Below the pieces are notes generated by a model. That model was not told the origin of the DNA. It ran no database searches and was given only the letters and a program-made list of their open reading frames with translations. From Longimicrobiales bacterium (GTDB lineage Bacteria; Gemmatimonadota; Gemmatimonadetes; Longimicrobiales; Gaopeijiaceae): 64,000 nt of DNA. The stretch spans positions 448,001 to 512,000 of the forward strand of contig CBDFIQ010000001.1 in assembly GCA_965248195.1 (NCBI GenBank), read 5' to 3'. A program made the translations under genes and the position numbers. Numbering within the stretch: position 1 is the stretch's first letter; each line of letters opens with the position of its first letter. Below are positions 18,117 to 54,966 of the stretch, piece by piece.

Positions 18117-19492
18117 GGTCAAGTCCCGATTTGTGTGTAAAAGCGGAGGAAGCTCCTCGCCTTCGGCTAGGCTGCTTGGGCGACCTCCTGTTTCTGGAGG
18201 AGTGAGAGGTCGAGGTAACGCCGGTCGCCCCAGACGTGTGTGGTCCTGAGTGCGACGGCCGTGATGAGCCTGAGGGCGCTGGCCCGGTCCGGGAAGGCGC
18301 CGGCGGCCTTGATCCTGCGTTTGATCTCGCCGTGCAGCCGCTCGAGGCTGTTGGTGGTACGCAGCCGGGGCCAGTGCGCCTCGGGGAACGCGTAGAACTG
18401 CGTCGCTGCCCCGAAGCCCCGCTCCAGGACCTCCACGGCCTCGGGCAGCTCCTTCTTCCAGCGTGCGCCGAACTCGCCCAGGAGCTTCTTCGCCTCGGCG
18501 AGTCCGGATGTCTGGAAGATCACCGAGACCTCACGCGCCACGCGCTTGCGTAAGCGGTGGGGGACCCTCGCCCCCACATTACGCTGCAGATGGACCGTAC
18601 ACCTCTGACGGCGTGCCTCGGGCAGGAAGCGGCGGACCGCAGCTGCCAGGCCTGCGTGCTCATCGGCGATCACGAGCTCGACACCGCCGAGGCCGCGGTC
18701 CTGGAGTTGCTCGAGGAGCTCCGACCAGCTCTGCTGCGACTCCTCAGCGCCCAGCGTGACGGCCAGGAGCCGTCGGTGACCCTCAGGGCCCACTGCATAC
18801 GCCACGAGCGCACTCACGTTCTCGACTTTGCGGGCCCAGCGGGCGTCCAAGAACGTGGCGTCCAGGTACAGATAGGGGTGAGGCCCCTCGATCGGCGCAC
18901 GGCGCAGCCCTTCCACGGCCTCGTCGAGCCGTTTTGCCACACGACTCACCGTCGAGCGCCCAACACGCTCGCCCATCAGCGCCTCGGTGACGTCGCCCAT
19001 CTTGCGCTGTGACACGCCGCTCACATACGCCTCGACCATCATCTCGTCGAGCTCGGGGCTCCTGCGCTGGTAGCGGCCGATCACGTCGGCCGGCGAACCG
19101 TTGTCCCGGCTCCGGGGCATGGCGACCTCGATCTGCCCCAGGCTCGTCAGCAGCCGCCTCAGGTATGTGCCGTTCCTATGGTCCTTCCGGCTTCCCACCC
19201 GCTCGAAGCGGCGTGCACCTACCATGGCCTTCAGCTCCTCTTCCAGCACCATCTCGAGCGTCAGCCGGATCGCGCCTTGAAACAGCTCGCGCAAATCATC
19301 GCGTAGCTCGTCTTGCGTGGCCCGACCGATCTCCACAATCTCTTGCATCGGAAGCTCCTCTCCGGTTCCGAGCCTGCTCTGCAGACCCGGACTCCCGGGT
19401 TCATGTGACAGTGAACAACAACAGAGGAGCTTCCGTTTTTCTTTCCCTCCTGTCCAGCTTATCCGCTTTTACACAAATCTAGGGACACTACC
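18117..19492 (-). mobile_element. IS256-family IS, copy 3
   Basis: 1376 bp; TSD CCCGGATC. Confidence 0.95.
18167..19348 (-). CDS. IS256-family transposase
   Basis: Identical protein. Confidence 0.95.
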   Translation of the reverse strand: MQEIVEIGRATQDELRDDLRELFQGAIRLTLEMVLEEELKAMVGARRFERVGSRKDHRNGTYLRRLLTSLGQIEVAMPRSRDNGSPADVIGRYQRRSPELDEMMVEAYVSGVSQRKMGDVTEALMGERVGRSTVSRVAKRLDEAVEGLRRAPIEGPHPYLYLDATFLDARWARKVENVSALVAYAVGPEGHRRLLAVTLGAEESQQSWSELLEQLQDRGLGGVELVIADEHAGLAAAVRRFLPEARRQRCTVHLQRNVGARVPHRLRKRVAREVSVIFQTSGLAEAKKLLGEFGARWKKELPEAVEVLERGFGAATQFYAFPEAHWPRLRTTNSLERLHGEIKRRIKAAGAFPDRASALRLITAVALRTTHVWGDRRYLDLSLLQKQEVAQAA

Positions 19493-20537: not shown

Positions 20538-20555
20538 CCCTCTCCTCACTCCGCC

Positions 20556-20617
20556 GTCTAACGTCTCGTGTTTCTGCTGCGCGCCAAAGATGTGGACCGC
20601 AAGCGAAGCACGCGACC
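20556..20617 (-). repeat. attC, R' half only, fused by deletion to an IS481 right end
   Basis: GTCTAACGTCTCGTGTTTCTGCTGCGCG.. matches the other attCs; junction at CGACC microhomology. Confidence 0.75.
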
Positions 20618-20696
20618 ACGACGACTCCGCTTCTCGTAACCCAAAACTGGAACCCATCAAGGTTCAGTTTTTGTTACCCATCAGGGTTCGGGCTCA
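20613..20696 (+). mobile_element. IS481-family right-end remnant
   Basis: Near-identical to 38450-38533. Confidence 0.8.
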
Positions 20697-20787: not shown

Positions 20788-21372
20788 TCACATCTTGTAA
20801 CCGCGCTTTAGCATCATCGGCGCATGCTTCGCAAAGAGATCGGCGGGCGGCACCTCGAAGGAGAAGGAATCTGCGAGACGATCGATCAGGTTGAAAGCAA
20901 ACGCCACGCCGATAGCGTCTTTGATGGCAGCATCGGACAGTCCCACTTCCCGCAGCGATTGCGCATCTTCAGTCGACAGCTCCTCGGGCCGCAGGGTCAT
21001 CGTCTCCAGAAACCGGAGCATCTCCTTCATTCTCTTGTCGATGGGGGCTGATTCGAAGTCCTCCAGAATCGCCTCCACTACCTCTTTTCCGAGGGCATGC
21101 GACGCGACCGCGCCGTGAGACCCAGTTCAGAATGGGCATTGATTCTTACGAGATACGAAGGCGGCGAAGAGTTCGCACTCGCCGGCACTCCATTCGCGAC
21201 TCAGGCGCATTACTGAGTGGGTAACCGCGGAGAACGACTTCCCGAAAAACTCAGGACGGTACAGCAAAGTCCGCACTACGTCGGGGATACGCACACGCAT
21301 GATCAGCTGCATCATACGCAGCTGGAGCTTCTGCCGTAGACGATGACCGTTCTCTAGCCGTTTGAGCCTCAC
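20788..21372 (-). CDS. AhpD/CMD-like peroxidase-related protein, putative selenoprotein (CPFU)
   Basis: ORFs 21127-21372 and 20788-21078 are one frame across TGA 21127-29: ELFAAFVSRKNQCPF-U-TGSH; hairpin with GGTC loop downstream. Confidence 0.75.
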
Positions 21373-21713
21373 GGTGTATCTCCTTCCCTCCCGCCGAGTG
21401 TTCCGAGAGCACGTTCCAGCCGCGCCCGAGACGCACCCAGTGCAGCTGCTACGGTCAACTCGAAGATCTGATCCTCCGAATAGCCCGCCGTCTTGAGTAA
21501 CTCGATGTCCTCGTCGGTTGTGCGGTAGGCATGCCGCGCAACCTTTTCTACCCAGTCGGACAGCTCGTCTGGCACCATCTCATCCGTGCCTTGCCGTCCG
21601 CTCAGTGCACCGGCCCGTGCTTCGACCGCACGACACAGCTCCGAAGTAGTCTTCCCCGGTCCAGACAGGACCGTATCGACGAGCCTGGTCAGGTCCTCAC
21701 GATAGCGGACCAT
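21369..21713 (-). CDS. CMD/AhpD-fold partner protein
   Basis: KVARHAYRTTDEDIELLKTAGYSEDQIFELTVAAALGA; RBS AGGAGG; overlaps the downstream start. Confidence 0.75.
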   Translation of the reverse strand: MVRYREDLTRLVDTVLSGPGKTTSELCRAVEARAGALSGRQGTDEMVPDELSDWVEKVARHAYRTTDEDIELLKTAGYSEDQIFELTVAAALGASRARLERALGTLGGREGDTP

Positions 21714-21808: not shown

Positions 21809-21929
21809 ACGGGCCGCATAACGTCTCTGCGATTCTGATCTTATAAGGCGAAAGGCTGACCTCACTCGAGCGTGGCGTTACGCTGATCTTGCTCAAAGGC
21901 CTGCGGCACCCAACCCAAGGAGGCCAGCC

Positions 21930-22967
21930 ATGTTTGTCGCAGGAATCGATGCTCACGCAACGTATTCGGTGATCGCCATCGTGAGCAACACAGGTCAGCT
22001 CGTTGCCGGACCCATCCGGATCAAGAACACGCAAGAGGATCGGCTCAATGATCTACTGGAGCAGTATCAGCCCCTGGAGGTGGTCGTCGAGACGAGTCCG
22101 GCCTGGCCGTGGCTCTTCGATCGACTCCAAGAGCGGGGGATCGACTTCGTGCTCGCTCACGCCAAGCGGCTCCGAGTCATCGCCGAGTCCAACTACAAGA
22201 GTGACGACATCGACGCCGAGTTGTTGGCGCGTATGCGACTCGCGGGCCTCATCCCCGAGGTCCATCCGAAGTGCGTCGAGCAGCGGGAGCAGGCGGTACT
22301 GCTACGCAACCGGGCACGACTCGTACGCGAACGCACACGCATGGTGAACCGCATCCATGCCCAGATCCACAACGTCGGGCTTCATCTGGAGCGTGGGCGT
22401 CTGCTCACCCAGGATGGACGCCAGTGGGTGCATGACGTGGCGTGGCCGCTGCTCGGAGCCGAGCGGCGTCTGTTCATCGACATGCAGTGGGAACTCATCG
22501 ACCAGATCGTGCCGATGATCAAAACGCTTGATCGCAGGGTTGAGCACGTAGGCCGCAAGGTCCCCGCTGTAGCTCTGCTCGAGACCATCCCGGGCGTCGG
22601 TTCCTATCGGGCATTGCTCATCGCCACCGAGACGTTGCCCATCAAACGATTTCGTACACCGGGGCACCTGGTCAGCTACGCCGGTCTAGCCCCTCGCTCC
22701 TCACAGTCAGGGCTCCGGCCCATCCGCCACGGATCGATCCCCGCCGGGGCCAACCGTTGGCTGAGGGGCACCTTCGTCCGGACCGTCGTGAGCCACGTCA
22801 CTCACGCGCCCGACAGCTGGCTATCACAGTCGTACGAACTGATCAGGCAACGGCTCGGGTGGCAGGTCGCTCGGGTCGCTACCGCTCGGCGCCTCGCTCG
22901 TGCTGTGCACGCGATGCTCCGTACGGGTGAGGTCTGGCACGATGAACCCGTGGCTCGATCAAACTGA
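21930..22967 (+). CDS. IS110-family recombinase/transposase
   Basis: DEDD residues in GIDAH, VVETS, KSDDIDA; TIPGVG; YAGLAPRSSQSG with the catalytic Ser. Confidence 0.95.
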   Translation: MFVAGIDAHATYSVIAIVSNTGQLVAGPIRIKNTQEDRLNDLLEQYQPLEVVVETSPAWPWLFDRLQERGIDFVLAHAKRLRVIAESNYKSDDIDAELLARMRLAGLIPEVHPKCVEQREQAVLLRNRARLVRERTRMVNRIHAQIHNVGLHLERGRLLTQDGRQWVHDVAWPLLGAERRLFIDMQWELIDQIVPMIKTLDRRVEHVGRKVPAVALLETIPGVGSYRALLIATETLPIKRFRTPGHLVSYAGLAPRSSQSGLRPIRHGSIPAGANRWLRGTFVRTVVSHVTHAPDSWLSQSYELIRQRLGWQVARVATARRLARAVHAMLRTGEVWHDEPVARSN

Positions 22968-23270
22968 GATGACACACGATGATGGACCGTACCACGACAG
23001 GGGTGAGCTCCGCGCGCAGCATGTCGCACGACGACCCTCAGATTCTGATTGAGCCCCCCGCTCGCATAGCAGATCTTCGGACATCCCCGCGCTGGGATGA
23101 AACCTGAATAGATGCCTGAGTTCCTCGTGAGAGGAGACTCACCCAAGATCGGACGCGACGTTGGTACTGAAGGATGAAAAACGGAAGATGATCACGCAGG
23201 CCTTGAGCTACAGACCAGTGGACCGAGCCACCCCTCCGGGACCCCGGACGGGTAAGGGAGGGCTACGCCC
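22968..23270 (+). ncRNA. Putative bridge RNA/seekRNA region of the IS1111-type element (RNA ends unknown)
   Basis: Target guides CGCGCAGCA (23013-21) and GATTCTG (23041-47); donor guides ATAGATG (23108-14) and AAGATCG (23145-51); each pair flanks a hairpin. Confidence 0.75.
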
Positions 23271-23586
23271 TGTTGACTCCCTTCACCTTATAGATGCTGC
23301 GCGGCTAATGTGGTGACCGCAAGCGAAGCGCGCGAGCCTCATGCTTACCGCGACTGCAGCAATCGCTTGTTAGAACGCCGTGCGGGGGCACTCCTGCCTT
23401 ACCCAGATCGGCGGCTAGTCGCAGCGTCTAGAACGCGTTCTGGGTCCACGCGAACGTCGTGGCCCAAACCAAGACTGCCGCGAACATCGCTACGGCCCCG
23501 GCTCCCACCGCAGTCTTCCTGGCCCTGAAGCCGACGACCAGAAAGTGCGATGAGGGCGAAGTTGGCAGATTCCCGGGAAGCGGCGG

Positions 23587-30462: not shown

Positions 30463-31470
30463 TTAGAGAGCAATATCCTGTGTGGTGAGGGAAGGGATGG
30501 GAGGATTGATGTAGACGGCCTCCGGGAGCGGTTTGGGCTTCGGCACACCTGTGACGAAGCGTTCGGGATGAGCGGCCCATGCTTCGCGGAGCACGGATTT
30601 CCTGCCGGCAATGACCTGATCGGCGTTCCCGAAGTGGACCTGCTCGGGGGTTAGCATCGAGATACCGCCATGGCGGTGCTCGGCATTGTACCAGCGGAAG
30701 AACGATCGACACAACGTCTTGGCCTGGCCCTGATCCCCGAACCGCCCGGGAAACGAGGGATGGTACTTCAAGGTTTTGAACTGAGCCTCGGAAAACGGGT
30801 TGTCATCCGACACCTGAGGCCGGCTCAACGAGCGAGTCACGCCGAGGTCAGCGAGAAGTTGAGCGGTGCATTGGCTCGTCATTGGAGCTCCCCGATCCGA
30901 GTGCAGGGTCAGGACCCGGGGCTGGACGCCATGCTTCAGGCAGCTCTGCTGGATCAACCGGCCGGCCAGGGCCGAGTTCTCCCGGTCCGCCACCATCCAG
31001 CCCACGACGTAGCGGCTGTAGATGTCCATGATGACGTAGAGGTAGTAATAGCTCCACTTCTTCGGCCCGAGTAGCCGCGTGATATCCCAGGACCACACCT
31101 GGTTCGGCGCCGTGGCCATCAACTCGGGCTTCTTGTACTCGGGATGGGTGCGCTGCGCCCGGCGTTCCTGAACCGGCACCTCGGAGGCCAGAACACGATA
31201 CATCGTGCGTTCGCTGCACAGGTAGACCTCTTCGTCGAGCAGCGTGGCCACCACCTCGGCGGGTGAGCGGTCCACGAACCGCTCCGAACACAGCGTGTCG
31301 AAGACCTCGCCTCGTTCCGTCTCGCTCAATGCCCGGGCGGGCGTCGGGCGGGGCTGCCGTTGCCCGGTCGATGGGCCTCGACGACGGTAGAACGTCGATC
31401 GGGAGACCTCGAGAGCCGCGCACGCCGGTTTTACACCGACGTGCTTAGCCAGCTCATCGGCCGCCTTCAA
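30463..31470 (-). CDS. IS3-family transposase OrfB (rve DDE)
   Basis: WSWDIT, HSDRG, DNPFSEAQFKTLK. Confidence 0.93.
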   Translation of the reverse strand: MKAADELAKHVGVKPACAALEVSRSTFYRRRGPSTGQRQPRPTPARALSETERGEVFDTLCSERFVDRSPAEVVATLLDEEVYLCSERTMYRVLASEVPVQERRAQRTHPEYKKPELMATAPNQVWSWDITRLLGPKKWSYYYLYVIMDIYSRYVVGWMVADRENSALAGRLIQQSCLKHGVQPRVLTLHSDRGAPMTSQCTAQLLADLGVTRSLSRPQVSDDNPFSEAQFKTLKYHPSFPGRFGDQGQAKTLCRSFFRWYNAEHRHGGISMLTPEQVHFGNADQVIAGRKSVLREAWAAHPERFVTGVPKPKPLPEAVYINPPIPSLTTQDIAL

Positions 31471-31916
31471 GAGTTCGTCCCGTCGTCGAGGCTTATCCCC
31501 AGCAGCCCCGCAACTTTTCCCTGCACGTCGATGATCAGGTGTGCCTTCCTGAGCTCATTCTCGAGCCGTGCGTTTTGCCGCTCCAGCTTGCGTACCTTCT
31601 CATCCAGCGGATTCCGCTCCGGCTTGCGGCCGCGTTTCTTCGACAGGGCCTTCAGCGACCCGCTATGCGCCGCCTTGCGCCACGTCGTCAGGTGCGACGA
31701 GTACAGGCCCTCGCGCCGCAGGAGCTGACCCACCTCGCCGGGCTCGGTGCACCGGTCCGCTTCTTCGACGATCCGCAGCTTGTACGATGGACTGAACCGC
31801 CGGCGTAGCGGCCTATCTACTACCTCCGGGTCCGCAGGAGCTGCCGCGCTTCGCTTGGCCTCCCCGATTCCAGGGGCACTACCATTCTCTTCCATTCTCT
31901 CTCGCAGTCCCAACAT
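31467..31916 (-). CDS. IS3-family OrfA
   Basis: RRRFSPSYKLRIVEE..LLRREGLYSSHLTTWR plus coiled coil. Confidence 0.9.
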   Translation of the reverse strand: MLGLRERMEENGSAPGIGEAKRSAAAPADPEVVDRPLRRRFSPSYKLRIVEEADRCTEPGEVGQLLRREGLYSSHLTTWRKAAHSGSLKALSKKRGRKPERNPLDEKVRKLERQNARLENELRKAHLIIDVQGKVAGLLGISLDDGTNS

Positions 31917-33530: not shown

Positions 33531-34538
33531 TTAGAGAGCAATATCCTGTGTGGTGAGGGAAGGGATGGGAGGATTGATGTAGACGGCCTCCGGGAGCGGT
33601 TTGGGCTTCGGCACACCTGTGACGAAGCGTTCGGGATGAGCGGCCCATGCTTCGCGGAGCACGGATTTCCTGCCGGCAATGACCTGATCGGCGTTCCCGA
33701 AGTGGACCTGCTCGGGGGTTAGCATCGAGATACCGCCATGGCGGTGCTCGGCATTGTACCAGCGGAAGAACGATCGACACAACGTCTTGGCCTGGCCCTG
33801 ATCCCCGAACCGCCCGGGAAACGAGGGATGGTACTTCAAGGTTTTGAACTGAGCCTCGGAAAACGGGTTGTCATCCGACACCTGAGGCCGGCTCAACGAG
33901 CGAGTCACGCCGAGGTCAGCGAGAAGTTGAGCGGTGCATTGGCTCGTCATTGGAGCTCCCCGATCCGAGTGCAGGGTCAGGACCCGGGGCTGGACGCCAT
34001 GCTTCAGGCAGCTCTGCTGGATCAACCGGCCGGCCAGGGCCGAGTTCTCCCGGTCCGCCACCATCCAGCCCACGACGTAGCGGCTGTAGATGTCCATGAT
34101 GACGTAGAGGTAGTAATAGCTCCACTTCTTCGGCCCGAGTAGCCGCGTGATATCCCAGGACCACACCTGGTTCGGCGCCGTGGCCATCAACTCGGGCTTC
34201 TTGTACTCGGGATGGGTGCGCTGCGCCCGGCGTTCCTGAACCGGCACCTCGGAGGCCAGAACACGATACATCGTGCGTTCGCTGCACAGGTAGACCTCTT
34301 CGTCGAGCAGCGTGGCCACCACCTCGGCGGGTGAGCGGTCCACGAACCGCTCCGAACACAGCGTGTCGAAGACCTCGCCTCGTTCCGTCTCGCTCAATGC
34401 CCGGGCGGGCGTCGGGCGGGGCTGCCGTTGCCCGGTCGATGGGCCTCGACGACGGTAGAACGTCGATCGGGAGACCTCGAGAGCCGCGCACGCCGGTTTT
34501 ACACCGACGTGCTTAGCCAGCTCATCGGCCGCCTTCAA
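33531..34538 (-). CDS. IS3-family OrfB
   Basis: Identical protein to copy A. Confidence 0.92.
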   Translation of the reverse strand: MKAADELAKHVGVKPACAALEVSRSTFYRRRGPSTGQRQPRPTPARALSETERGEVFDTLCSERFVDRSPAEVVATLLDEEVYLCSERTMYRVLASEVPVQERRAQRTHPEYKKPELMATAPNQVWSWDITRLLGPKKWSYYYLYVIMDIYSRYVVGWMVADRENSALAGRLIQQSCLKHGVQPRVLTLHSDRGAPMTSQCTAQLLADLGVTRSLSRPQVSDDNPFSEAQFKTLKYHPSFPGRFGDQGQAKTLCRSFFRWYNAEHRHGGISMLTPEQVHFGNADQVIAGRKSVLREAWAAHPERFVTGVPKPKPLPEAVYINPPIPSLTTQDIAL

Positions 34539-41529: not shown

Positions 41530-42010
41530 CGCGACGATGTAGAGCAGAATGGTTGGAAGTCTGTTAATGCCGTGCCGCCTTTGATGACGCCTAACGTCTC
41601 TGCGATTCTGATCTTATAAGGCGAAAGGCTGACCTCACTCGAGCGTGGCGTTACGCTGATCTTGCTCAAAGGCCTGCGGCACCCAACCCAAGGAGGCCAG
41701 CCATGTTTGTCGCAGGAATCGATGCTCACGCAACGTATTCGGTGATCGCCATCGTGAGCAATACAGGTCAGCTCGTGGCCGGACCCATCCGGATCAAGAA
41801 CACACAAGAGGATCGACTCGATGATCTACTTCAGCAGTATCAGCCCCTGGAGGTGGTCGTCGAGACGAGTCCGGCCTGGCCGTGGCTCTTCGATCGACTC
41901 CAAGAGCGGGGGATCGACTTCGTGCTCGCTCACGCCAAGCGGCTCCGAGTCATTGCCGAGTCCAACTACAAGAGTGACGACATCGACGCCGAGTTGTTGG
42001 CGCGTATGCG

Positions 42011-43386
42011 GGTAGTGTCCCTAGATTTGTGTAAAAGCGGATAAGCTGGACAGGAGGGAAAGAAAAACGGAAGCTCCTCTGTTGTTGTTCACTGTCACAT
42101 GAACCCGGGAGTCCGGGTCTGCAGAGCAGGCTCGGAACCGGAGAGGAGCTTCCGATGCAAGAGATTGTGGAGATCGGTCGGGCCACGCAAGACGAGCTAC
42201 GCGATGATTTGCGCGAGCTGTTTCAAGGCGCGATCCGGCTGACGCTCGAGATGGTGCTGGAAGAGGAGCTGAAGGCCATGGTAGGTGCACGCCGCTTCGA
42301 GCGGGTGGGAAGCCGGAAGGACCATAGGAACGGCACATACCTGAGGCGGCTGCTGACGAGCCTGGGGCAGATCGAGGTCGCCATGCCCCGGAGCCGGGAC
42401 AACGGTTCGCCGGCCGACGTGATCGGCCGCTACCAGCGCAGGAGCCCCGAGCTCGACGAGATGATGGTCGAGGCGTATGTGAGCGGCGTGTCACAGCGCA
42501 AGATGGGCGACGTCACCGAGGCGCTGATGGGCGAGCGTGTTGGGCGCTCGACGGTGAGTCGTGTGGCAAAACGGCTCGACGAGGCCGTGGAAGGGCTGCG
42601 CCGTGCGCCGATCGAGGGGCCTCACCCCTATCTGTACCTGGACGCCACGTTCTTGGACGCCCGCTGGGCCCGCAAAGTCGAGAACGTGAGTGCGCTCGTG
42701 GCGTATGCAGTGGGCCCTGAGGGTCACCGACGGCTCCTGGCCGTCACGCTGGGCGCTGAGGAGTCGCAGCAGAGCTGGTCGGAGCTCCTCGAGCAACTCC
42801 AGGACCGCGGCCTCGGCGGTGTCGAGCTCGTGATCGCCGATGAGCACGCAGGCCTGGCAGCTGCGGTCCGCCGCTTCCTGCCCGAGGCACGCCGTCAGAG
42901 GTGTACGGTCCATCTGCAGCGTAATGTGGGGGCGAGGGTCCCCCACCGCCTACGCAAGCGCGTGGCGCGTGAGGTCTCGGTGATCTTCCAGACATCCGGA
43001 CTCGCCGAGGCGAAGAAGCTCCTGGGCGAGTTCGGCGCACGCTGGAAGAAGGAGCTGCCCGAGGCCGTGGAGGTCCTGGAGCGGGGCTTCGGGGCAGCGA
43101 CGCAGTTCTACGCGTTCCCCGAGGCGCACTGGCCCCGGCTGCGTACCACCAACAGCCTCGAGCGGCTGCACGGCGAGATCAAACGCAGGATCAAGGCCGC
43201 CGGCGCCTTCCCGGACCGGGCCAGCGCCCTCAGGCTCATCACGGCCGTCGCACTCAGGACCACACACGTCTGGGGCGACCGGCGTTACCTCGACCTCTCA
43301 CTCCTCCAGAAACAGGAGGTCGCCCAAGCAGCCTAGCCGAAGGCGAGGAGCTTCCTCCGCTTTTACACACAAATCGGGACTTGACC
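42011..43386 (+). mobile_element. IS256-family IS, copy 5
   Basis: 1376 bp; TSD CGTATGCG. Confidence 0.95.
42155..43336 (+). CDS. IS256-family transposase
   Basis: Identical protein. Confidence 0.95.
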   Translation: MQEIVEIGRATQDELRDDLRELFQGAIRLTLEMVLEEELKAMVGARRFERVGSRKDHRNGTYLRRLLTSLGQIEVAMPRSRDNGSPADVIGRYQRRSPELDEMMVEAYVSGVSQRKMGDVTEALMGERVGRSTVSRVAKRLDEAVEGLRRAPIEGPHPYLYLDATFLDARWARKVENVSALVAYAVGPEGHRRLLAVTLGAEESQQSWSELLEQLQDRGLGGVELVIADEHAGLAAAVRRFLPEARRQRCTVHLQRNVGARVPHRLRKRVAREVSVIFQTSGLAEAKKLLGEFGARWKKELPEAVEVLERGFGAATQFYAFPEAHWPRLRTTNSLERLHGEIKRRIKAAGAFPDRASALRLITAVALRTTHVWGDRRYLDLSLLQKQEVAQAA

Positions 43387-45076
43387 CGTATGCGACTCGC
43401 GGGCCTCATCCCCGAGGTCCATCCGAAGTGCGTCGAGCAGCGGGAGCAGGCGGTACTGCTACGCAACCGGGCACGACTCGTACGCGAACGCACACGCATG
43501 GTGAACCGCATCCATGCCCAGATCCACAACGTCGGGCTTCATCTGGAGCGTGGGCGTCTGCTCACCCAGGATGGACGCCAGTGGGTGCATGACGTGGCGT
43601 GGCCGCTGCTCGGAGCCGAGCGGCGTCTGTTCATCGACATGCAGTGGGAACTCATCGACCAGATCGTGCCGATGATCAAAACGCTTGATCGCAGGGTTGA
43701 GCACGTAGGCCGCAAGGTCCCCGCTGTAGCTCTGCTCGAGACCATCCCGGGCGTCGGTTCCTATCGGGCATTGCTCATCGCCACCGAGACGTTGCCCATC
43801 AAACGATTTCGTACACCGGGGCACCTGGTCAGCTACGCCGGTCTAGCCCCTCGCTCCTCACAGTCAGGGCTCCGGCCCATCCGCCACGGATCGATCCCCG
43901 CCGGGGCCAACCGTTGGCTGAGGGGCACCTTCGTCCGGACCGTCGTGAGCCACGTCACTCACGCGCCCGACAGCTGGCTATCACAGTCGTACGAACTGAT
44001 CAGGCAACGGCTCGGGTGGCAGGTCGCTCGGGTCGCTACCGCTCGGCGCCTCGCTCGTGCTGTGCACGCGATGCTCCGTACGGGTGAGGTCTGGCACGAT
44101 GAACCCGTGGCTCGATCAAACTGAGATGACACACGATGATGGACCGTACCACGACAGGGGTGAGCTCCGCGCGCAGCATGTCGCACGACGACCCTCAGAT
44201 TCTGATTGAGCCCCCCGCTCGCATAGCAGATCTTCGGACATCCCCGCGCTGGGATGAAACCTGAATAGATGCCTGAGTTCCTCGTGAGAGGAGACTCACC
44301 CAAGATCGGACGCGACGTTGGTACTGAAGGATGAAAAACGGAAGATGATCACGCAGGCCTTGAGCTACAGACCAGTGGACCGAGCCACCCCTCCGGGACC
44401 CCGGACGGGTAAGGGAGGGCTACGCCCTGTTGACTCCCTTCACCTTATAGATGCTGCGCGGCTAATGTGGTGACCGCGGGCGAAGCGCGCGAGCGTGATA
44501 CCTACCGCGACAGTAGCGATCGCTTGTTAGACAGCGCTGAACCCGAGGTCGGCACTTGGATAGTTACCGCCGACCTCGCCTCCGTGGGCGGCCAGGACCT
44601 CTAGGACGAAATCAGTCTTGCCGTTCAGGTACGCAAGCCGGACGGTTCCGACTTCCTCCGCAAGGCGTTGCTTCAGTACCGCGTACTGACGGGCTATCTC
44701 CGAGTCCCCTCGGAGGGCATCGCGGAAGATCAACGTGTTGCGGGAGTAGCGAGAACTGGGTTCAGCCAACGAAACGTGGTGCTTTCGGAGGCCGTCGAGC
44801 GTGCGGGGGAAATAGTGTCGGTCCGGCAGGTCATCCTTCGCGCGATACTCGAAGCCCAGCGACTCTAGGGTCGGGACCACGGCCAGGGCCTCCACGAGAT
44901 CTGGAACCCCCACGAGAATGTCGACGATGGGCTTGGCCTCTAGTCCTGGAACCGACGTACTGCCCACGTGATCCACAGAGATGATCCACCGCGGGAGCCA
45001 GCGGATGAGTTCTCCACGAACCCGCTCGAACTCGAGCGGAACCTGTCAACGACAATGGGACACTCTACGGGATTAA

Positions 45077-46530: not shown

Positions 46531-46815
46531 GTTCGTTTTCTCTGCCTTCGCCCTACTCTAATTCTTTGCGTGCTCCGTGTCTCACGTACGTTGGCAGAGA
46601 GGGAGCGGCCAAGCCTCATCGTACGGGCGCACGACAATCCCGGCGCCCTTCTCCATCCCGACGGAATCGGAAGACTGCATCAATGCCCCATACGTGGCGC
46701 GTTCTAACGTCTCTGCGATTCTGATCTTATAAGGCGAAAGGCTGACCTCACTCGAGCGTGGCGTTACGCTGATCTTGCTCAAAGGCCTGCGGCACCCAAC
46801 CCAAGGAGGCCAGCC

Positions 46816-47853
46816 ATGTTTGTCGCAGGAATCGATGCTCACGCAACGTATTCGGTGATCGCCATCGTGAGCAACACAGGTCAGCTCGTTGCCGGACCCA
46901 TCCGGATCAAGAACACGCAAGAGGATCGGCTCAATGATCTACTGGAGCAGTATCAGCCCCTGGAGGTGGTCGTCGAGACGAGTCCGGCCTGGCCGTGGCT
47001 CTTCGATCGACTCCAAGAGCGGGGGATCGACTTCGTGCTCGCTCACGCCAAGCGGCTCCGAGTCATCGCCGAGTCCAACTACAAGAGTGACGACATCGAC
47101 GCCGAGTTGTTGGCGCGTATGCGACTCGCGGGCCTCATCCCCGAGGTCCATCCGAAGTGCGTCGAGCAGCGGGAGCAGGCGGTACTGCTACGCAACCGGG
47201 CACGACTCGTACGCGAACGCACACGCATGGTGAACCGCATCCATGCCCAGATCCACAACGTCGGGCTTCATCTGGAGCGTGGGCGTCTGCTCACCCAGGA
47301 TGGACGCCAGTGGGTGCATGACGTGGCGTGGCCGCTGCTCGGAGCCGAGCGGCGTCTGTTCATCGACATGCAGTGGGAACTCATCGACCAGATCGTGCCG
47401 ATGATCAAAACGCTTGATCGCAGGGTTGAGCACGTAGGCCGCAAGGTCCCCGCTGTAGCTCTGCTCGAGACCATCCCGGGCGTCGGTTCCTATCGGGCAT
47501 TGCTCATCGCCACCGAGACGTTGCCCATCAAACGATTTCGTACACCGGGGCACCTGGTCAGCTACGCCGGTCTAGCCCCTCGCTCCTCACAGTCAGGGCT
47601 CCGGCCCATCCGCCACGGATCGATCCCCGCCGGGGCCAACCGTTGGCTGAGGGGCACCTTCGTCCGGACCGTCGTGAGCCACGTCACTCACGCGCCCGAC
47701 AGCTGGCTATCACAGTCGTACGAACTGATCAGGCAACGGCTCGGGTGGCAGGTCGCTCGGGTCGCTACCGCTCGGCGCCTCGCTCGTGCTGTGCACGCGA
47801 TGCTCCGTACGGGTGAGGTCTGGCACGATGAACCCGTGGCTCGATCAAACTGA
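46816..47853 (+). CDS. IS110-family recombinase
   Basis: Identical 345 aa. Confidence 0.95.
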   Translation: MFVAGIDAHATYSVIAIVSNTGQLVAGPIRIKNTQEDRLNDLLEQYQPLEVVVETSPAWPWLFDRLQERGIDFVLAHAKRLRVIAESNYKSDDIDAELLARMRLAGLIPEVHPKCVEQREQAVLLRNRARLVRERTRMVNRIHAQIHNVGLHLERGRLLTQDGRQWVHDVAWPLLGAERRLFIDMQWELIDQIVPMIKTLDRRVEHVGRKVPAVALLETIPGVGSYRALLIATETLPIKRFRTPGHLVSYAGLAPRSSQSGLRPIRHGSIPAGANRWLRGTFVRTVVSHVTHAPDSWLSQSYELIRQRLGWQVARVATARRLARAVHAMLRTGEVWHDEPVARSN

Positions 47854-48156
47854 GATGACACACGATGATGGACCGTACCACGACAGGGGTGAGCTCCGCG
47901 CGCAGCATGTCGCACGACGACCCTCAGATTCTGATTGAGCCCCCCGCTCGCATAGCAGATCTTCGGACATCCCCGCGCTGGGATGAAACCTGAATAGATG
48001 CCTGAGTTCCTCGTGAGAGGAGACTCACCCAAGATCGGACGCGACGTTGGTACTGAAGGATGAAAAACGGAAGATGATCACGCAGGCCTTGAGCTACAGA
48101 CCAGTGGACCGAGCCACCCCTCCGGGACCCCGGACGGGTAAGGGAGGGCTACGCCC
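47854..48156 (+). ncRNA. Putative bridge/seekRNA region, copy 3
   Basis: Matches the copy 1 non-coding region. Confidence 0.7.
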
Positions 48157-48324
48157 TGTTGACTCCCTTCACCTTATAGATGCTGCGCGGCTAAGATGCC
48201 CTCCGCAAGCGGAGCGCGCGAGCCTGATGCTTACCGCGACCGCAGCAATCGCTTGTTAGAACGTGCCTAGCAACCTTTGTACTACAGATGCACTCTTCTC
48301 AACAAAACACCCGGGAATCATCAC

Positions 48325-49017: not shown

Positions 49018-49367
49018 CTGCGGACGAGACGGCTACTCGATTAGGCGAGGTCTCATCCCCCTTAATGACACCTCGAAACGCAACCAGATTGGCGAAGAAA
49101 TCCCGGCTCAGCCCCGTTAAGGCGGCCTGTTCCTCGATTCGGTGGTGGCGCTCCTCCCAGCATGCCTGGATCCCAAAGCCCGATCGCTACTCCCTCGACC
49201 GTGATCCGGAGCCTCGGAATGTCAGGTGCCCGTTACCTGGCTGCCGGGGCGTGGCCTAACGGATTTGCGATTCTGATCTTATAAGGCGAAAGGCTGACCT
49301 CACTCGAGCGTGGCGTTACGCTGATCTTGCTCAAAGGCCTGCGGCACCCAACCCAAGGAGGCCAGCC

Positions 49368-50405
49368 ATGTTTGTCGCAGGAATCGATGCTCACGCAACG
49401 TATTCGGTGATCGCCATCGTGAGCAACACAGGTCAGCTCGTTGCCGGACCCATCCGGATCAAGAATACGCAAGAGGATCGGCTCAATGATCTACTGGAGC
49501 AGTATCAGCCCCTGGAGGTGGTCGTCGAGACGAGTCCGGCCTGGCCGTGGCTCTTCGATCGACTCCAAGAGCGGGGGATCGACTTCGTGCTCGCTCACGC
49601 CAAGCGGCTCCGAGTCATCGCCGAGTCCAACTACAAGAGTGACGACATCGACGCCGAGTTGTTGGCGCGTATGCGACTCGCGGGCCTCATCCCCGAGGTC
49701 CATCCGAAGTGCGTCGAGCAGCGGGAGCAGGCGGTACTGCTACGCAACCGGGCACGACTCGTACGCGAACGCACACGCATGGTGAACCGCATCCATGCCC
49801 AGATCCACAACGTCGGGCTTCATCTGGAGCGTGGGCGTCTGCTCACCCAGGATGGACGCCAGTGGGTGCATGACGTGGCGTGGCCGCTGCTCGGAGCCGA
49901 GCGGCGTCTGTTCATCGACATGCAGTGGGAACTCATCGACCAGATCGTGCCGATGATCAAAACGCTTGATCGCAGGGTTGAGCACGTAGGCCGCAAGGTC
50001 CCCGCTGTAGCTCTGCTCGAGACCATCCCGGGCGTCGGTTCCTATCGGGCATTGCTCATCGCCACCGAGACGTTGCCCATCAAACGATTTCGTACACCGG
50101 GGCACCTGGTCAGCTACGCCGGTCTAGCCCCTCGCTCCTCACAGTCAGGGCTCCGGCCCATCCGCCACGGATCGATCCCCGCCGGGGCCAACCGTTGGCT
50201 GAGGGGCACCTTCGTCCGGACCGTCGTGAGCCACGTCACTCACGCGCCCGACAGCTGGCTATCACAGTCGTACGAACTGATCAGGCAACGGCTCGGGTGG
50301 CAGGTCGCTCGGGTCGCTACCGCTCGGCGCCTCGCTCGTGCTGTGCACGCGATGCTCCGTACGGGTGAGGTCTGGCACGATGAACCCGTGGCTCGATCAA
50401 ACTGA
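49368..50405 (+). CDS. IS110-family recombinase
   Basis: Identical 345 aa. Confidence 0.95.
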   Translation: MFVAGIDAHATYSVIAIVSNTGQLVAGPIRIKNTQEDRLNDLLEQYQPLEVVVETSPAWPWLFDRLQERGIDFVLAHAKRLRVIAESNYKSDDIDAELLARMRLAGLIPEVHPKCVEQREQAVLLRNRARLVRERTRMVNRIHAQIHNVGLHLERGRLLTQDGRQWVHDVAWPLLGAERRLFIDMQWELIDQIVPMIKTLDRRVEHVGRKVPAVALLETIPGVGSYRALLIATETLPIKRFRTPGHLVSYAGLAPRSSQSGLRPIRHGSIPAGANRWLRGTFVRTVVSHVTHAPDSWLSQSYELIRQRLGWQVARVATARRLARAVHAMLRTGEVWHDEPVARSN

Positions 50406-50708
50406 GATGACACACGATGATGGACCGTACCACGACAGGGGTGAGCTCCGTGCGCAGCATGTCGCACGACGACCCTCAGATTCTGATTGAGCCCCCCGCT
50501 CGCATAGCAGATCTTCGGACATCCCCGCGCTGGGATGAAACCTGAATAGATGCCTGAGTTCCTCGTGAGAGGAGACTCACCCAAGATCGGACGCGACGTT
50601 GGTACTGAAGGATGAAAAACGGAAGATGATCACGCAGGCCTTGAGCTACAGACCAGTGGACCGAGCCACCCCTCCGGGACCCCGGACGGGTAAGGGAGGG
50701 CTACGCCC
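50406..50708 (+). ncRNA. Putative bridge/seekRNA region, copy 4
   Basis: As copy 1, with C>T at 50451. Confidence 0.7.
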
Positions 50709-50850
50709 TGTTGACTCCCTTCACCTTATAGATGCTGCGCGGCTAATGTGGTGACCGCAAGCGAAGCGCGCGAGCCTGATGCCAACCGCGACTGCAGCAA
50801 TCGCTTGTTAGGCAGCTGGCGGTGATCGGCCAACTCGCAACGCTCGGGAC

Positions 50851-51780
50851 TCAACCCACCGGATAACAAGCGAGGTCCTCGCCGACTCTCACGACTCCGT
50901 CGTAGCGAGTCCTGACCTCAGTAACGCCCTCCTCGAGGTCCCCAACGAATAGGTGACTGAGGATTAACTGTTCGACGTCCGCGTCCGCAGCAACTTGGCC
51001 AACGACGTCGGGGGTTGCATGGAAATCGAGCGTTTCCCCCGATGCCGTGGGGGAGACTGCCAGGTGCATCACCAAAGCCGAGGCGTTGCGTGAAAATGAG
51101 ACGAAGGCTGGGTCGCTGCCGGTCTGATCACCGCTGAACACAACGCTCACGCCCTGAGCCTCCACCCGGTAGGCGAGCGAGGGGACATTCGCATGCGGCA
51201 CTGGTAGCGCACGCACCGTCAGACCCGCTTCCTGCAAGATCACGGTGGAGCCAGCCATTTCGACATCAACCATTACCGGGTCGAGACGCACGCCTCGCCC
51301 TGGCCCGCCGAGTGTGCCGCCGAGAATCTGAAAGGCACCAGCCTCCGGATCGAAGAGCCGCGAGAGAAACAGGTTCAGCGGTGGGTAGGCCTCGTTTCCG
51401 GAAGGACCCGCGATACGAAGTGGCTCTTGGCGGAGGCCATCACTCAGCCAGAGAATGGCGGAAAGGCCAGAAACGTGGTCTGGATGAAAATGGCTGAGTG
51501 CGAGGAGATCCAAGTCCGCCAGCTGCGCGCCCGACTCGCCGACGCGCAGAAACGATCCTCCACCTGCGTCCACCATGATCCGGGAACGACCATCGACCCA
51601 AACCACATAGCTAGACGAGGCTCGACCCGTTCCAGCGCGTGGGCCACCAGACCCGAGGACCTGCACGGCCACGCCGGTAGCGGGGCACTGCTCTTGATCG
51701 ACGACGCAGGACGATGCAAAAAAAACGAAGAGGAAGCATGTCGTGTGGAACACCCGCAAGTTGAGACCCATATTCGGCAT
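50851..51780 (-). CDS. MBL-fold metallo-hydrolase (RNase Z/arylsulfatase-like), cassette gene
   Basis: LGSGGP, SHFHPDH, FSGD, LSH; cassette ends complementary over 14 bp (GTTAGGCAGCTGGC). Confidence 0.88.
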   Translation of the reverse strand: MPNMGLNLRVFHTTCFLFVFFASSCVVDQEQCPATGVAVQVLGSGGPRAGTGRASSSYVVWVDGRSRIMVDAGGGSFLRVGESGAQLADLDLLALSHFHPDHVSGLSAILWLSDGLRQEPLRIAGPSGNEAYPPLNLFLSRLFDPEAGAFQILGGTLGGPGRGVRLDPVMVDVEMAGSTVILQEAGLTVRALPVPHANVPSLAYRVEAQGVSVVFSGDQTGSDPAFVSFSRNASALVMHLAVSPTASGETLDFHATPDVVGQVAADADVEQLILSHLFVGDLEEGVTEVRTRYDGVVRVGEDLACYPVG

Positions 51781-51942
51781 CCCTTTCTCTTCGACAAGAT
51801 CCGAGCGTAAGCCCGCTGGGAGCCAGCTGCCTAACGGATCTGCGATTCTGATCTTATAAGGCGAAAGGCTGACCTCACTCGAGCGTGGCGTTACGCTGAT
51901 CTTGCTCAAAGGCCTGCGGCACCCAACCCAAGGAGGCCAGCC

Positions 51943-52980
51943 ATGTTTGTCGCAGGAATCGATGCTCACGCAACGTATTCGGTGATCGCCATCGTGAGCA
52001 ACACAGGTCAGCTCGTTGCCGGACCCATCCGGATCAAGAACACGCAAGAGGATCGGCTCAATGATCTACTGGAGCAGTATCAGCCCCTGGAGGTGGTCGT
52101 CGAGACGAGTCCGGCCTGGCCGTGGCTCTTCGATCGACTCCAAGAGCGGGGGATCGACTTCGTGCTCGCTCACGCCAAGCGGCTCCGAGTCATCGCCGAG
52201 TCCAACTACAAGAGTGACGACATCGACGCCGAGTTGTTGGCGCGTATGCGACTCGCGGGCCTCATCCCCGAGGTCCATCCGAAGTGCGTCGAGCAGCGGG
52301 AGCAGGCGGTACTGCTACGCAACCGGGCACGACTCGTACGCGAACGCACACGCATGGTGAACCGCATCCATGCCCAGATCCACAACGTCGGGCTTCATCT
52401 GGAGCGTGGGCGTCTGCTCACCCAGGATGGACGCCAGTGGGTGCATGACGTGGCGTGGCCGCTGCTCGGAGCCGAGCGGCGTCTGTTCATCGACATGCAG
52501 TGGGAACTCATCGACCAGATCGTGCCGATGATCAAAACGCTTGATCGCAGGGTTGAGCACGTAGGCCGCAAGGTCCCCGCTGTAGCTCTGCTCGAGACCA
52601 TCCCGGGCGTCGGTTCCTATCGGGCATTGCTCATCGCCACCGAGACGTTGCCCATCAAACGATTTCGTACACCGGGGCACCTGGTCAGCTACGCCGGTCT
52701 AGCCCCTCGCTCCTCACAGTCAGGGCTCCGGCCCATCCGCCACGGATCGATCCCCGCCGGGGCCAACCGTTGGCTGAGGGGCACCTTCGTCCGGACCGTC
52801 GTGAGCCACGTCACTCACGCGCCCGACAGCTGGCTATCACAGTCGTACGAACTGATCAGGCAACGGCTCGGGTGGCAGGTCGCTCGGGTCGCTACCGCTC
52901 GGCGCCTCGCTCGTGCTGTGCACGCGATGCTCCGTACGGGTGAGGTCTGGCACGATGAACCCGTGGCTCGATCAAACTGA
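51943..52980 (+). CDS. IS110-family recombinase
   Basis: Identical 345 aa. Confidence 0.95.
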   Translation: MFVAGIDAHATYSVIAIVSNTGQLVAGPIRIKNTQEDRLNDLLEQYQPLEVVVETSPAWPWLFDRLQERGIDFVLAHAKRLRVIAESNYKSDDIDAELLARMRLAGLIPEVHPKCVEQREQAVLLRNRARLVRERTRMVNRIHAQIHNVGLHLERGRLLTQDGRQWVHDVAWPLLGAERRLFIDMQWELIDQIVPMIKTLDRRVEHVGRKVPAVALLETIPGVGSYRALLIATETLPIKRFRTPGHLVSYAGLAPRSSQSGLRPIRHGSIPAGANRWLRGTFVRTVVSHVTHAPDSWLSQSYELIRQRLGWQVARVATARRLARAVHAMLRTGEVWHDEPVARSN

Positions 52981-53142
52981 GATGACACACGATGATGGAC
53001 CGTACCACGACAGGGGTGAGCTCCGCGCGCAGCATGTCGCACGACGACCCTCAGATTCTGATTGAGCCCCCCGCTCGCATAGCAGATCTTCGGACATCCC
53101 CGCGGAACCTGTCAACGACAATGGGACACTCTACGGGATTAA

Positions 53143-54150
53143 TTAGAGAGCAATATCCTGTGTGGTGAGGGAAGGGATGGGAGGATTGATGTAGACGGCC
53201 TCCGGGAGCGGTTTGGGCTTCGGCACACCTGTGACGAAGCGTTCGGGATGAGCGGCCCATGCTTCGCGGAGCACGGATTTCCTGCCGGCAATGACCTGAT
53301 CGGCGTTCCCGAAGTGGACCTGCTCGGGGGTTAGCATCGAGATACCGCCATGGCGGTGCTCGGCATTGTACCAGCGGAAGAACGATCGACACAACGTCTT
53401 GGCCTGGCCCTGATCCCCGAACCGCCCGGGAAACGAGGGATGGTACTTCAAGGTTTTGAACTGAGCCTCGGAAAACGGGTTGTCATCCGACACCTGAGGC
53501 CGGCTCAACGAGCGAGTCACGCCGAGGTCAGCGAGAAGTTGAGCGGTGCATTGGCTCGTCATTGGAGCTCCCCGATCCGAGTGCAGGGTCAGGACCCGGG
53601 GCTGGACGCCATGCTTCAGGCAGCTCTGCTGGATCAACCGGCCGGCCAGGGCCGAGTTCTCCCGGTCCGCCACCATCCAGCCCACGACGTAGCGGCTGTA
53701 GATGTCCATGATGACGTAGAGGTAGTAATAGCTCCACTTCTTCGGCCCGAGTAGCCGCGTGATATCCCAGGACCACACCTGGTTCGGCGCCGTGGCCATC
53801 AACTCGGGCTTCTTGTACTCGGGATGGGTGCGCTGCGCCCGGCGTTCCTGAACCGGCACCTCGGAGGCCAGAACACGATACATCGTGCGTTCGCTGCACA
53901 GGTAGACCTCTTCGTCGAGCAGCGTGGCCACCACCTCGGCGGGTGAGCGGTCCACGAACCGCTCCGAACACAGCGTGTCGAAGACCTCGCCTCGTTCCGT
54001 CTCGCTCAATGCCCGGGCGGGCGTCGGGCGGGGCTGCCGTTGCCCGGTCGATGGGCCTCGACGACGGTAGAACGTCGATCGGGAGACCTCGAGAGCCGCG
54101 CACGCCGGTTTTACACCGACGTGCTTAGCCAGCTCATCGGCCGCCTTCAA
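53143..54150 (-). CDS. IS3-family OrfB
   Basis: Identical protein. Confidence 0.92.
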   Translation of the reverse strand: MKAADELAKHVGVKPACAALEVSRSTFYRRRGPSTGQRQPRPTPARALSETERGEVFDTLCSERFVDRSPAEVVATLLDEEVYLCSERTMYRVLASEVPVQERRAQRTHPEYKKPELMATAPNQVWSWDITRLLGPKKWSYYYLYVIMDIYSRYVVGWMVADRENSALAGRLIQQSCLKHGVQPRVLTLHSDRGAPMTSQCTAQLLADLGVTRSLSRPQVSDDNPFSEAQFKTLKYHPSFPGRFGDQGQAKTLCRSFFRWYNAEHRHGGISMLTPEQVHFGNADQVIAGRKSVLREAWAAHPERFVTGVPKPKPLPEAVYINPPIPSLTTQDIAL

Positions 54151-54596
54151 GAGTTCGTCCCGTCGTCGAGGCTTATCCCCAGCAGCCCCGCAACTTTTCC
54201 CTGCACGTCGATGATCAGGTGTGCCTTCCTGAGCTCATTCTCGAGCCGTGCGTTTTGCCGCTCCAGCTTGCGTACCTTCTCATCCAGCGGATTCCGCTCC
54301 GGCTTGCGGCCGCGTTTCTTCGACAGGGCCTTCAGCGACCCGCTATGCGCCGCCTTGCGCCACGTCGTCAGGTGCGACGAGTACAGGCCCTCGCGCCGCA
54401 GGAGCTGACCCACCTCGCCGGGCTCGGTGCACCGGTCCGCTTCTTCGACGATCCGCAGCTTGTACGATGGACTGAACCGCCGGCGTAGCGGCCTATCTAC
54501 TACCTCCGGGTCCGCAGGAGCTGCCGCGCTTCGCTTGGCCTCCCCGATTCCAGGGGCACTACCATTCTCTTCCATTCTCTCTCGCAGTCCCAACAT
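54147..54596 (-). CDS. IS3-family OrfA
   Basis: Identical protein. Confidence 0.9.
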   Translation of the reverse strand: MLGLRERMEENGSAPGIGEAKRSAAAPADPEVVDRPLRRRFSPSYKLRIVEEADRCTEPGEVGQLLRREGLYSSHLTTWRKAAHSGSLKALSKKRGRKPERNPLDEKVRKLERQNARLENELRKAHLIIDVQGKVAGLLGISLDDGTNS

Positions 54597-54966
54597 GTTC
54601 GTTTTCTCTGCCTTCGCCCTACTCTAATTCTTTGCGTGCTCCGTGTCTCACGTACGTTGGCAGAGAGGGCCGCGCTGGGATGAAACCTGAATAGATGCCT
54701 GAGTTCCTCGTGAGAGGAGACTCACCCAAGATCGGACGCGACGTTGGTACTGAAGGATGAAAAACGGAAGATGATCACGCAGGCCTTGAGCTACAGACCA
54801 GTGGACCGAGCCACCCCTCCGGGACCCCGGACGGGTAAGGGAGGGCTACGCCCTGTTGACTCCCTTCACCTTATAGATGCTGCGCGGCTAAGATGCCCTC
54901 CGCAAGCGGAGCGCGCGACCCTCCCGTTCTCGCGACTGCAGCAATCGCTTGTTAGATGGCGGCGGG

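Follow-up and report, generated by a model that had tools for sequence, protein, structure and literature searches.

A predicted guide RNA in the 3′ non-coding region of an IS1111-type element inserted into attC-like sites of a Longimicrobiales bacterium

The 64,000 nucleotides analysed here (the window) contain an insertion sequence whose non-coding region, 3′ of the recombinase gene, holds short motifs that repeat or complement the element ends and the insertion site. Does this region encode an RNA that guides the recombinase, and is this RNA directed at integron attC sites? A first-pass annotation of the sequence had proposed both and had regarded the RNA-guided system as complete. In our assessment, the product of the region is very probably a guide RNA, and the element to which it belongs an active one of IS1111 type, in which a change of two guides leads to retargeting.

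The element and its attC-like insertion site

The element (21836-23294) is an intact IS1111-type member of the IS110 superfamily and carries the motif-bearing non-coding region at its 3′ side. Its DEDD recombinase of 345 aa (21930..22967, + strand) matched PF01548 (59.9 bits) and PF02371 (57.1 bits) above cut-off, and D7, E54, D92, D95 and S260 were invariant in an alignment of 32 sequences. The earlier assignment to the IS110 superfamily, which is marked by a DEDD RuvC domain and by a C-terminal domain that bears the catalytic serine, is thereby upheld. In the genome, 12 left and 11 right ends of the element were found, making up 10 paired copies, three of which are broken by other insertions. 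All 12 left ends were identical and read TGCGATTC-TG-ATCTTATAAGG, with the boundaries fixed from other copies, and all 11 right ends read CCTTATAGA-TG followed by CTGCGCG (n = 9), TTGCGCG (n = 1) or CTGCGCA (n = 1). Full-length matches to the transposase in the genome numbered seven at 100% identity and three at 96-99.7%, and the spread of the element is therefore recent.

The non-coding DNA measures 327 bp 3′ of the recombinase stop versus 94 bp on the 5′ side, as is typical of IS1111 elements. The subterminal inverted repeats, TGATCTT followed by ATAAGGCGAAAGG on the left and CCTTCACCTTAT followed by AGA on the right, match at 10/12 positions without gaps, and the IS1111 layout likewise has subterminal repeats 11-13 bp long, extended by 7 bp on the left and by 3 bp on the right. 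On the + strand, the left end begins with a TG copy of the core (21836..21837), a left-end core found in 86/86 elements, followed by the right donor ATCT (21838..21841), which is placed in the left terminal extension by comparison of element ends, and by the left repeat (21842..21855); the right repeat (23280..23292) lies just inside the element end at 23294. The TG core and the IS1111-type layout with its downstream non-coding region, both put forward in the first-pass annotation, thus agree with the copy ends and the repeats. Four further copies in the window (41609-44451, 46722-48180, 49274-50732 and 51849-54877) occupy attC-like sites of a cassette array, and in two of the four another insertion sequence has broken the copy. 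A C to T change is present in the copy at 49274 and in one at C1:1102182, at the outermost base of the right-target guide. At the left end of C1:1106415 the left target is kept next to TAC instead of a TAAC box, and this copy is cut by another insertion sequence 34 nt into its non-coding region. The window as a whole is rich in insertion sequences, with several copies of IS256-family and IS3-like rve elements (18167-19348, 30463-31916 and 33531-34538).

Removal of the element restores a 101-bp repeat with TAAC and GTTAG boxes at its ends that folds as a long hairpin. A profile search for this attC-like family gave 40 matches in the genome, of which 12 were in the window and five of these were split by the element. 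Like attC sites, they have R″/R′ boxes and a long imperfect hairpin and are flanked by single-gene cassettes, the 12 window sites lying between co-oriented genes. The names of the R′, R″, L′ and L″ boxes are assumed by us to carry over from attC anatomy. The cassette-like genes between the sites are on the − strand and start just beyond the box nearest the insertion; this box is therefore R′, the element is antisense to the cassettes and its core falls within L′, at a distance of 13 bp to R′ and of 72 bp to R″. The R′ end of the interrupted site (21816..21835, − strand) comprises the R′ box (21816-22), a 9-nt spacer and part of L′, and includes the left target (21831-35). The rest of the site (23295..23375, − strand) holds the target TG (23295-96), the right target (23297-23303), the central region, L″ and R″ (23369-75). 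All 10 paired copies occupy one position of the attC-like family in one orientation, antisense to the cassettes, and the proposed attC-like target is confirmed by them.

The perfect 14-mer formed by the left target, the core and the right target was present in 9/10 paired copies versus 2/25 empty sites of the family (Fisher p 7e-6; the sites are non-independent, some empty ones have decayed and those counted are the ones covering the stretch). The genome holds 11 perfect 14-mers in total, nine occupied and two empty, all in attC-like sites. The reconstructed empty target was found unbroken at two other genome sites, and empty sites of the family were present in contigs of 3/4 public runs. The sole integron-integrase match in the genome, which is 91.8% complete, was a truncated remnant scoring 238.7 bits against a cut-off of 265. 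The sites are therefore termed attC-like, and the integron arrays seem to be without an intact integrase. The remnant is C-terminal (G000:C1:1112697-1113260, − strand), is cut off upstream and is followed by an IS256-family copy.

Some further features accompany the arrays. An empty attC-like site at 20553-20626 is truncated, differs at one position from the 14-mer read by the guides and adjoins an inverted repeat. The ORFs at 20788-21713 (− strand) presumably resemble carboxymuconolactone decarboxylase; they gave no Pfam match. In the middle ORF a TGA occurs in frame, in the context C-P-F-stop, and the frame stays open past this codon, which may stand for selenocysteine. A cassette ORF with a metallo-beta-lactamase fold (50851-52047, − strand) and a serine beta-lactamase-family ORF (58961-60337, + strand) are assigned to fold family and family only, and resistance is not implied by either.

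Target guides and the fold of the predicted RNA

The two motifs assigned to the target in the first-pass annotation are present as described: CGCGCAGCA at 23013-21 is the reverse complement of 23295-23303, and GATTCTG at 23041-47 has the same letters as 21831-37. For their comparison among relatives, 178 loci were collected, 86 of which retained both ends at an identity of 40% or more, the others being truncated, interrupted or more distant. Leaving out duplicates and the rows with disturbed RNA (L034, L038, L153 and L176) gave 78 aligned sequences, and covariation was counted over the 63 distinct guide pairs with full flanks. Element ends were placed by motif and repeat matching, since a free end-finder misplaced the ends in truncated loci; placement by repeats only left 86/86 ends unchanged. 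The 86-element set was pre-filtered for a TG left core, and no contrary left end occurred among the loci left out.

The right-target guide (23013..23021, + strand) consists of 7 nt and a core-binding CA and would pair with the top strand; the left-target guide (23041..23047, + strand) consists of 5 nt and TG and would pair with the bottom strand. Read from 23019 to 23013, the RNA was complementary to right-target positions +1 to +7 in 56, 54, 54, 51, 51, 52 and 42 of the 63 pairs, with +8 at chance level. Read from 23045 to 23041, it was identical to left-target positions −1 to −5 in 59, 55, 59, 52 and 38 of the 63, dropping to chance at −6. These matches (38-59 of 63) compare with 26-58% in shuffled pairings, all with p<=0.0005, and in an all-versus-all scan of mutual information 10 of the 11 highest-ranking pairs were target guide pairs. 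When independent pairs from 65 rows were used to control for kinship, nine of the 12 target positions had p<0.05, namely right-target +2, +3, +4, +5 and +7 and left-target −1 to −4. Right-target +1 and +6 and left-target −5 did not reach p<0.05 in independent pairs, though they changed mainly in the right direction. By this covariation the predicted target loop is shown, at the level of sequence, to read the 14-bp site GATTC-TG-CTGCGCG, its 5′ guide matching the top strand and its 3′ guide the bottom strand. The top-strand match at 23013-21 stands 5′ of the bottom-strand match at 23041-47, the order found in IS1111 elements.

Both target guides thus change with the insertion site across the 63 pairs, tree-independent pairs included, and the reprogramming to which the loops had been thought open has taken place in nature: homologs with other targets carry changed guides. 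One example is L100, which is 89% identical: its insertion point in the same attC family is displaced by a further 3 bp, and its two guides are shifted accordingly. L038, left out of the 63, has the same guides with unmatched flanks. Its right flank resembles the guide RNA gene of another copy from the left-target TG onward, possibly reflecting a nested or half-match insertion.

The consensus fold of 74 sequences predicts a bridge or long seek RNA whose conserved structured part spans 23000..23158 (+ strand), with approximate ends. The target-binding loop domain (23000..23059, + strand) has closing stems at 23000-10/23051-59 and an inner stem at 23023-26/23032-35; the pair 23008-23053 was kept in 63/63 relatives with 17 both-side changes and the pair 23024-23034 in 62/63 with 16. 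The consensus donor domain (approximately 23062-23158) has a multiloop closed by a GATC/GATC stem; the multiloop contains two hairpins, and the left-donor guide occupies the stretch that separates them. The hairpin 3′ of this guide (23117..23141, + strand; column positions approximate) had 23121-23137 paired in 61/63 with 30 both-side changes. The minimum-energy fold of the region had z-scores of −0.53 and −0.89 versus shuffles and did not contain the target loop, and for the single sequence the consensus structure has −48.8 versus −55.5 kcal/mol for the minimum. The stems drawn in the first-pass annotation consequently stand in the comparative pair counts and fail in the single-sequence fold, which is no better than shuffles. 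Rfam gave no match in the window. The contigs of RNA runs cover the region and gave no sign of a discrete small RNA, although contigs cannot show a discrete transcript.

The donor domain and alternative readings of the guides

ATAGATG at 23108-14, proposed as the guide for the left donor, has the same letters as 23290-96. This left-donor guide (23108..23114, + strand; 5 nt and TG) lies in the multiloop and tracks the element end. Position 23112 equals the last left-donor base in 62/63 relatives, across A, G and C, and this pair fills the remaining place in the top 11 of the mutual-information scan. In independent pairs, 3/4 changed the same way and none the opposite way, p<0.05 not being reached. 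The left-donor guide is retained on these grounds, with fewer independent events than the target guides.

The right donor poses a different problem. A fully bispecific RNA with AAGATCG, found at 23145-51 as annotated, as right-donor guide would account for the reverse-complement match that this copy has between the motif and TGATCTT, one wobble included, and for the GATC kept at that place in most relatives. The motif, however, does not covary with the right donor, pairs with GATC at 23072-75 and overlaps the 3′ strand of the multiloop-closing stem (23145..23150, + strand), which is given by the consensus fold and by covariation. Five relatives, from about two lineages, have GATAC in the 5′ strand, and the opposite strand has become GTATC in four of them and GTATG in one with the donor unchanged. 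The right donor itself varies at three positions only; no RNA position tracks it among the 63 relatives, and 0/5 independent pairs follow the change from ATCT to ACCT. We consider this reading highly improbable, and comparison of the sequences indicates that AAGATCG is better explained as a strand of an RNA stem than as a donor guide. The 5′ strand of the same stem (23072..23077, + strand) is the sole plausible, if non-covarying, position for a right-donor guide, and a tentative case, falling somewhat short of even chances, can be made for a guide at about 23066-76 that the stem would hide as long as the RNA is free and that would become accessible on the donor, with the 3′ GATC as a donor mimic. 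The strand reads AGATCT here and AGATCA in most relatives, the latter being the exact complement of TGATCT, and in the donor domain it is placed as the right-target guide is in the other domain, in the order guide, CA, T, stem; yet it is unchanged when the right donor changes, and T replaces the core-pairing A in this copy. Because neither strand of the closing stem follows the donor, no programmable right-donor guide is shown, and the description of the bispecific RNA as complete is not sustained among the 63 relatives. The opposite simplification, in which the target loop alone matters as a short seekRNA of about 60-85 nt, recognition of the donor ends falls to protein and the donor-like match is a coincidence, finds a precedent in ISEc11, for whose movement an 82-nt seekRNA suffices (PMC11187229, partial text). 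We judge it distinctly unlikely here, as the left-donor guide follows the A, G and C donor bases in 62/63, the donor domain retains covarying stems and, in the available part of a preprint (10.1101/2025.10.25.684509), a target-loop-only RNA gives just partial transfer.

Relatives, known systems and a proposed mechanism

Automated scoring of attC hairpins missed the window's own site and was dropped, 5/150 random sites having scored >=14; the attC calls for the relatives therefore rest on box spacing read by eye. Among 35 chosen relatives, a TAAC-type box was found 12-16 bp upstream of the core in 19, and the core overlapped GTTAG in six. In a lineage of 45-52% identity (L127, L055, L175, L178, L142 and L168) insertion is antisense with the TG core overlapping the R″ GTTAG. 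In a clade of about 31% identity (L006, L007, L008, L009, L012 and L016) it is on the sense strand in the R″-L″ spacer, one base after TAAC, at 6/6 loci, and CG forms the left-end core, with AG, CG, TG or GG as right-end core. L049, L047, L032, L125 and L107 apparently lie at further positions of the same attC family, in the central region or nearer R′. In L017 (the locus of G180), whose own target is a REP-like palindrome, the transposase gene is broken by about 1.3 kb holding a cassette-like gene bounded by attC sites.

Since related lineages insert at further attC positions, attC targeting arose repeatedly, by convergence, and the present lineage appears to have learned integron-site targeting independently and at a different spot. 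It could be argued that attC specificity needs a folded hairpin besides the guide match: attC and other palindromic repeats are targeted repeatedly in this clade, and a target stem-loop is reportedly required by ISPpu10 (10.64898/2026.03.19.712850, partial text). Many relatives, however, use non-attC targets, and because all 11 perfect 14-mers, both the nine occupied and the two empty, are in attC-like sites, sequence alone explains the insertion pattern. A hairpin requirement is therefore unlikely in our view, and the guide match is the preferred basis of site choice.

In a tree of 62 proteins, six named IS1111-type proteins formed a 100/100 clade with this element outside it, and the 24-row clade of the element was supported at 100/99; with 10 plasmid-derived references only, the element did not fall within the tight IS1111 cluster. 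Its named relatives are almost all from Gemmatimonadota. The closest named transposase found was that of ISHvo10 (31% over 336 aa), with which the element groups at 93/95; ISHvo10 is a long branch and its placement is unsure. A single clade with ISKpn4 and ISPa25 was rejected (p-AU 2.06e-7, with long branches and few references). The attC-targeting IS1111 elements are reportedly also treated in works by Tetu & Holmes (2008) and Post & Hall (2009). Members of this group (ISKpn4, ISPst6, ISPa25 and ISPa21) share with the present element the DEDD recombinase, the subterminal repeats and their 7/3-bp extensions, the 3′ non-coding region, the order of top-strand before bottom-strand match and attC insertion antisense to the cassettes. 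They differ in that the transposase is distant (24.7% identity to ISPa25 over 356 columns; a 73-aa match only to ISKpn4) and shares no clade with theirs, and in that the core of ISKpn4 and ISPa25 is 4 bp from the R″ box (PMC13604230, partial text) whereas that of this element is in L′. The element works like the ISKpn4 group and is not a member of it. ISHvo10 is likewise IS1111-type and, with this element, falls outside the canonical IS1111 cluster, its branch being described as more diverged IS1111-type; it is archaeal and differs from this element in that the non-coding region is long on either side (PMC11187229, partial text).

Co-purifying seekRNAs of the attC-targeting ISKpn4 and ISPst6 were demonstrated experimentally by Siddiquee et al. 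2024 (PMC11187229, partial text), where the reversed guide order of IS1111 seekRNAs is also published; donor bases in a multiloop were predicted for IS1111 in PMC11208160 (partial text). As far as the accessible parts of PMC11208160 and PMC11208158 extend, IS621 and ISCro4 resemble the element in the catalytic D-E-D-D and S, the two-domain RNA, the 2-nt core, and the guide lengths, the 5′ guide having 7+2 nt and the 3′ guide, which a handshake-like dinucleotide follows, being shorter; here, by contrast, the RNA is downstream, the guide order is reversed, the donor guide lies in a multiloop and no programmable right-donor guide was found. Profile matches to the IS621/ISCro4 recombinases in the PDB were weak (E 5e-9 and 2e-7). 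Group IIC-attC introns are also mobile and insert into attC on the antisense strand, with retroelement chemistry and an unrelated protein (PMC3001079, partial text). In the partly available literature, IS110, attC, bridge RNA and integron were joined in PMC11208160 only, and nothing related was found for Gemmatimonad integrons with IS110 and attC. Further literature for comparison, likewise partial, comprises PMC13626964, PMC11616780 and 10.64898/2026.08.31.748434.

Two candidate handshake positions follow the left guides. The dinucleotide AT at 23048..23049 (+ strand) equals the first two right-donor bases. Across the 63 relatives, the base two places past the TG of the left-target guide is identical to the second base of the right donor in 55/63 versus 37.5 on shuffling, and of five independent pairs 4.5 went the same way and none the opposite way (p 0.06). 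The base at 23115..23115 (+ strand) equals the first right-target base in 56/63 versus 34.5 on shuffling, with two of 4-6 independent pairs going the same way, which is non-significant. In the RNAs of ISPa25 and ISKpn4, AT and CT respectively follow the left-target match and equal the element's own right-donor bases; the base after the left-donor match of ISEc11, whose left junction is ambiguous, breaks the rule. These alignments weakly suggest that the handshake bases are placed after the left guides, as a mirror image of IS621, where their position is after the right guides and their pairing partner is the non-cognate top strand (PMC11208158, partial text). In the literature available in part, handshake bases are described for IS621 only and this mirror reading of the reversed guide order was not found.

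Under the preferred reading, a two-domain RNA with two target guides and one left-donor guide, the target loop would read the 14-bp site in L′ of the host's attC-like family and the site is split 13 bp inside the R′ box; as the target is the L′ region, insertion is antisense to the cassettes. The multiloop would present the left-donor guide, which would read the element's own right end, and reading of the left end may need no programmable guide and instead involve protein at the subterminal repeat, the AGAUC strand, which is invariant, and the handshake bases. By analogy, the element would have the geometry of IS621 on DNA that is turned round, and the bottom strand would therefore be exchanged first. 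A left core that is constant and a right core that depends on the target are what bottom-strand-first exchange predicts, a prediction already encoded in the 7/3-bp end convention. The right-end core varied in 4/86 close elements, in 5/6 distant ones and in ISPa25 and ISKpn4, and the left-end core was constant per lineage. A change of both guides would retarget the element, as has been done many times in nature. We give roughly even odds to the joint proposition that attC was colonised at least four times by guide reprogramming, by the ISKpn4 group, the 31%-identity clade, the 45-52% lineage and this lineage in L′ (in registers 3 bp apart), and that IS1111-type RNAs have the IS621 geometry on turned-round DNA, the bottom strand being exchanged first, the handshake bases standing immediately behind the left guides and the donor domain having a single programmable guide. 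If true, this proposition would furnish the IS1111 half of the family with design rules.

The principle of these systems is already published, and the value of the locus is as an example and a resource; the mechanism is not new. It illustrates that RNA-guided recombinases retarget in nature, even by a 3-bp slide between relatives 89% alike, and that separate lineages converge on integron attC and split it, with 9/11 perfect targets filled here. From the 63 natural guide/target pairs, guides of 7+2 and of 5+2 nt can be mapped, together with candidate handshake bases, in a branch without a close solved structure, and the reversed guide order of IS1111 thereby becomes directly testable.

Expression would, from knowledge of the family, come from a circular form of the element, the circle junction joining a −35 box to a weak −10 and driving transcription of the recombinase gene and the RNA. 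The predicted −35 box, TTGACT at 23273..23278 (+ strand), is where the first-pass annotation had put it, and TTGAC stands 16 nt before the right-end core in 58/63 relatives. The hexamer 17 nt further on across the circle is GATCTT, weak but placed as a −10, with its A and last T invariant; the proposal of a −35 box with a weak −10 holds in this form. A scan of the linear element returned no promoter and no terminator, and the circle junction was absent from joints in contigs of four public runs, assembled contigs being unable to show one. Directly 5′ of the −35 box, a small hairpin at 23258-23271 is kept in the relatives.
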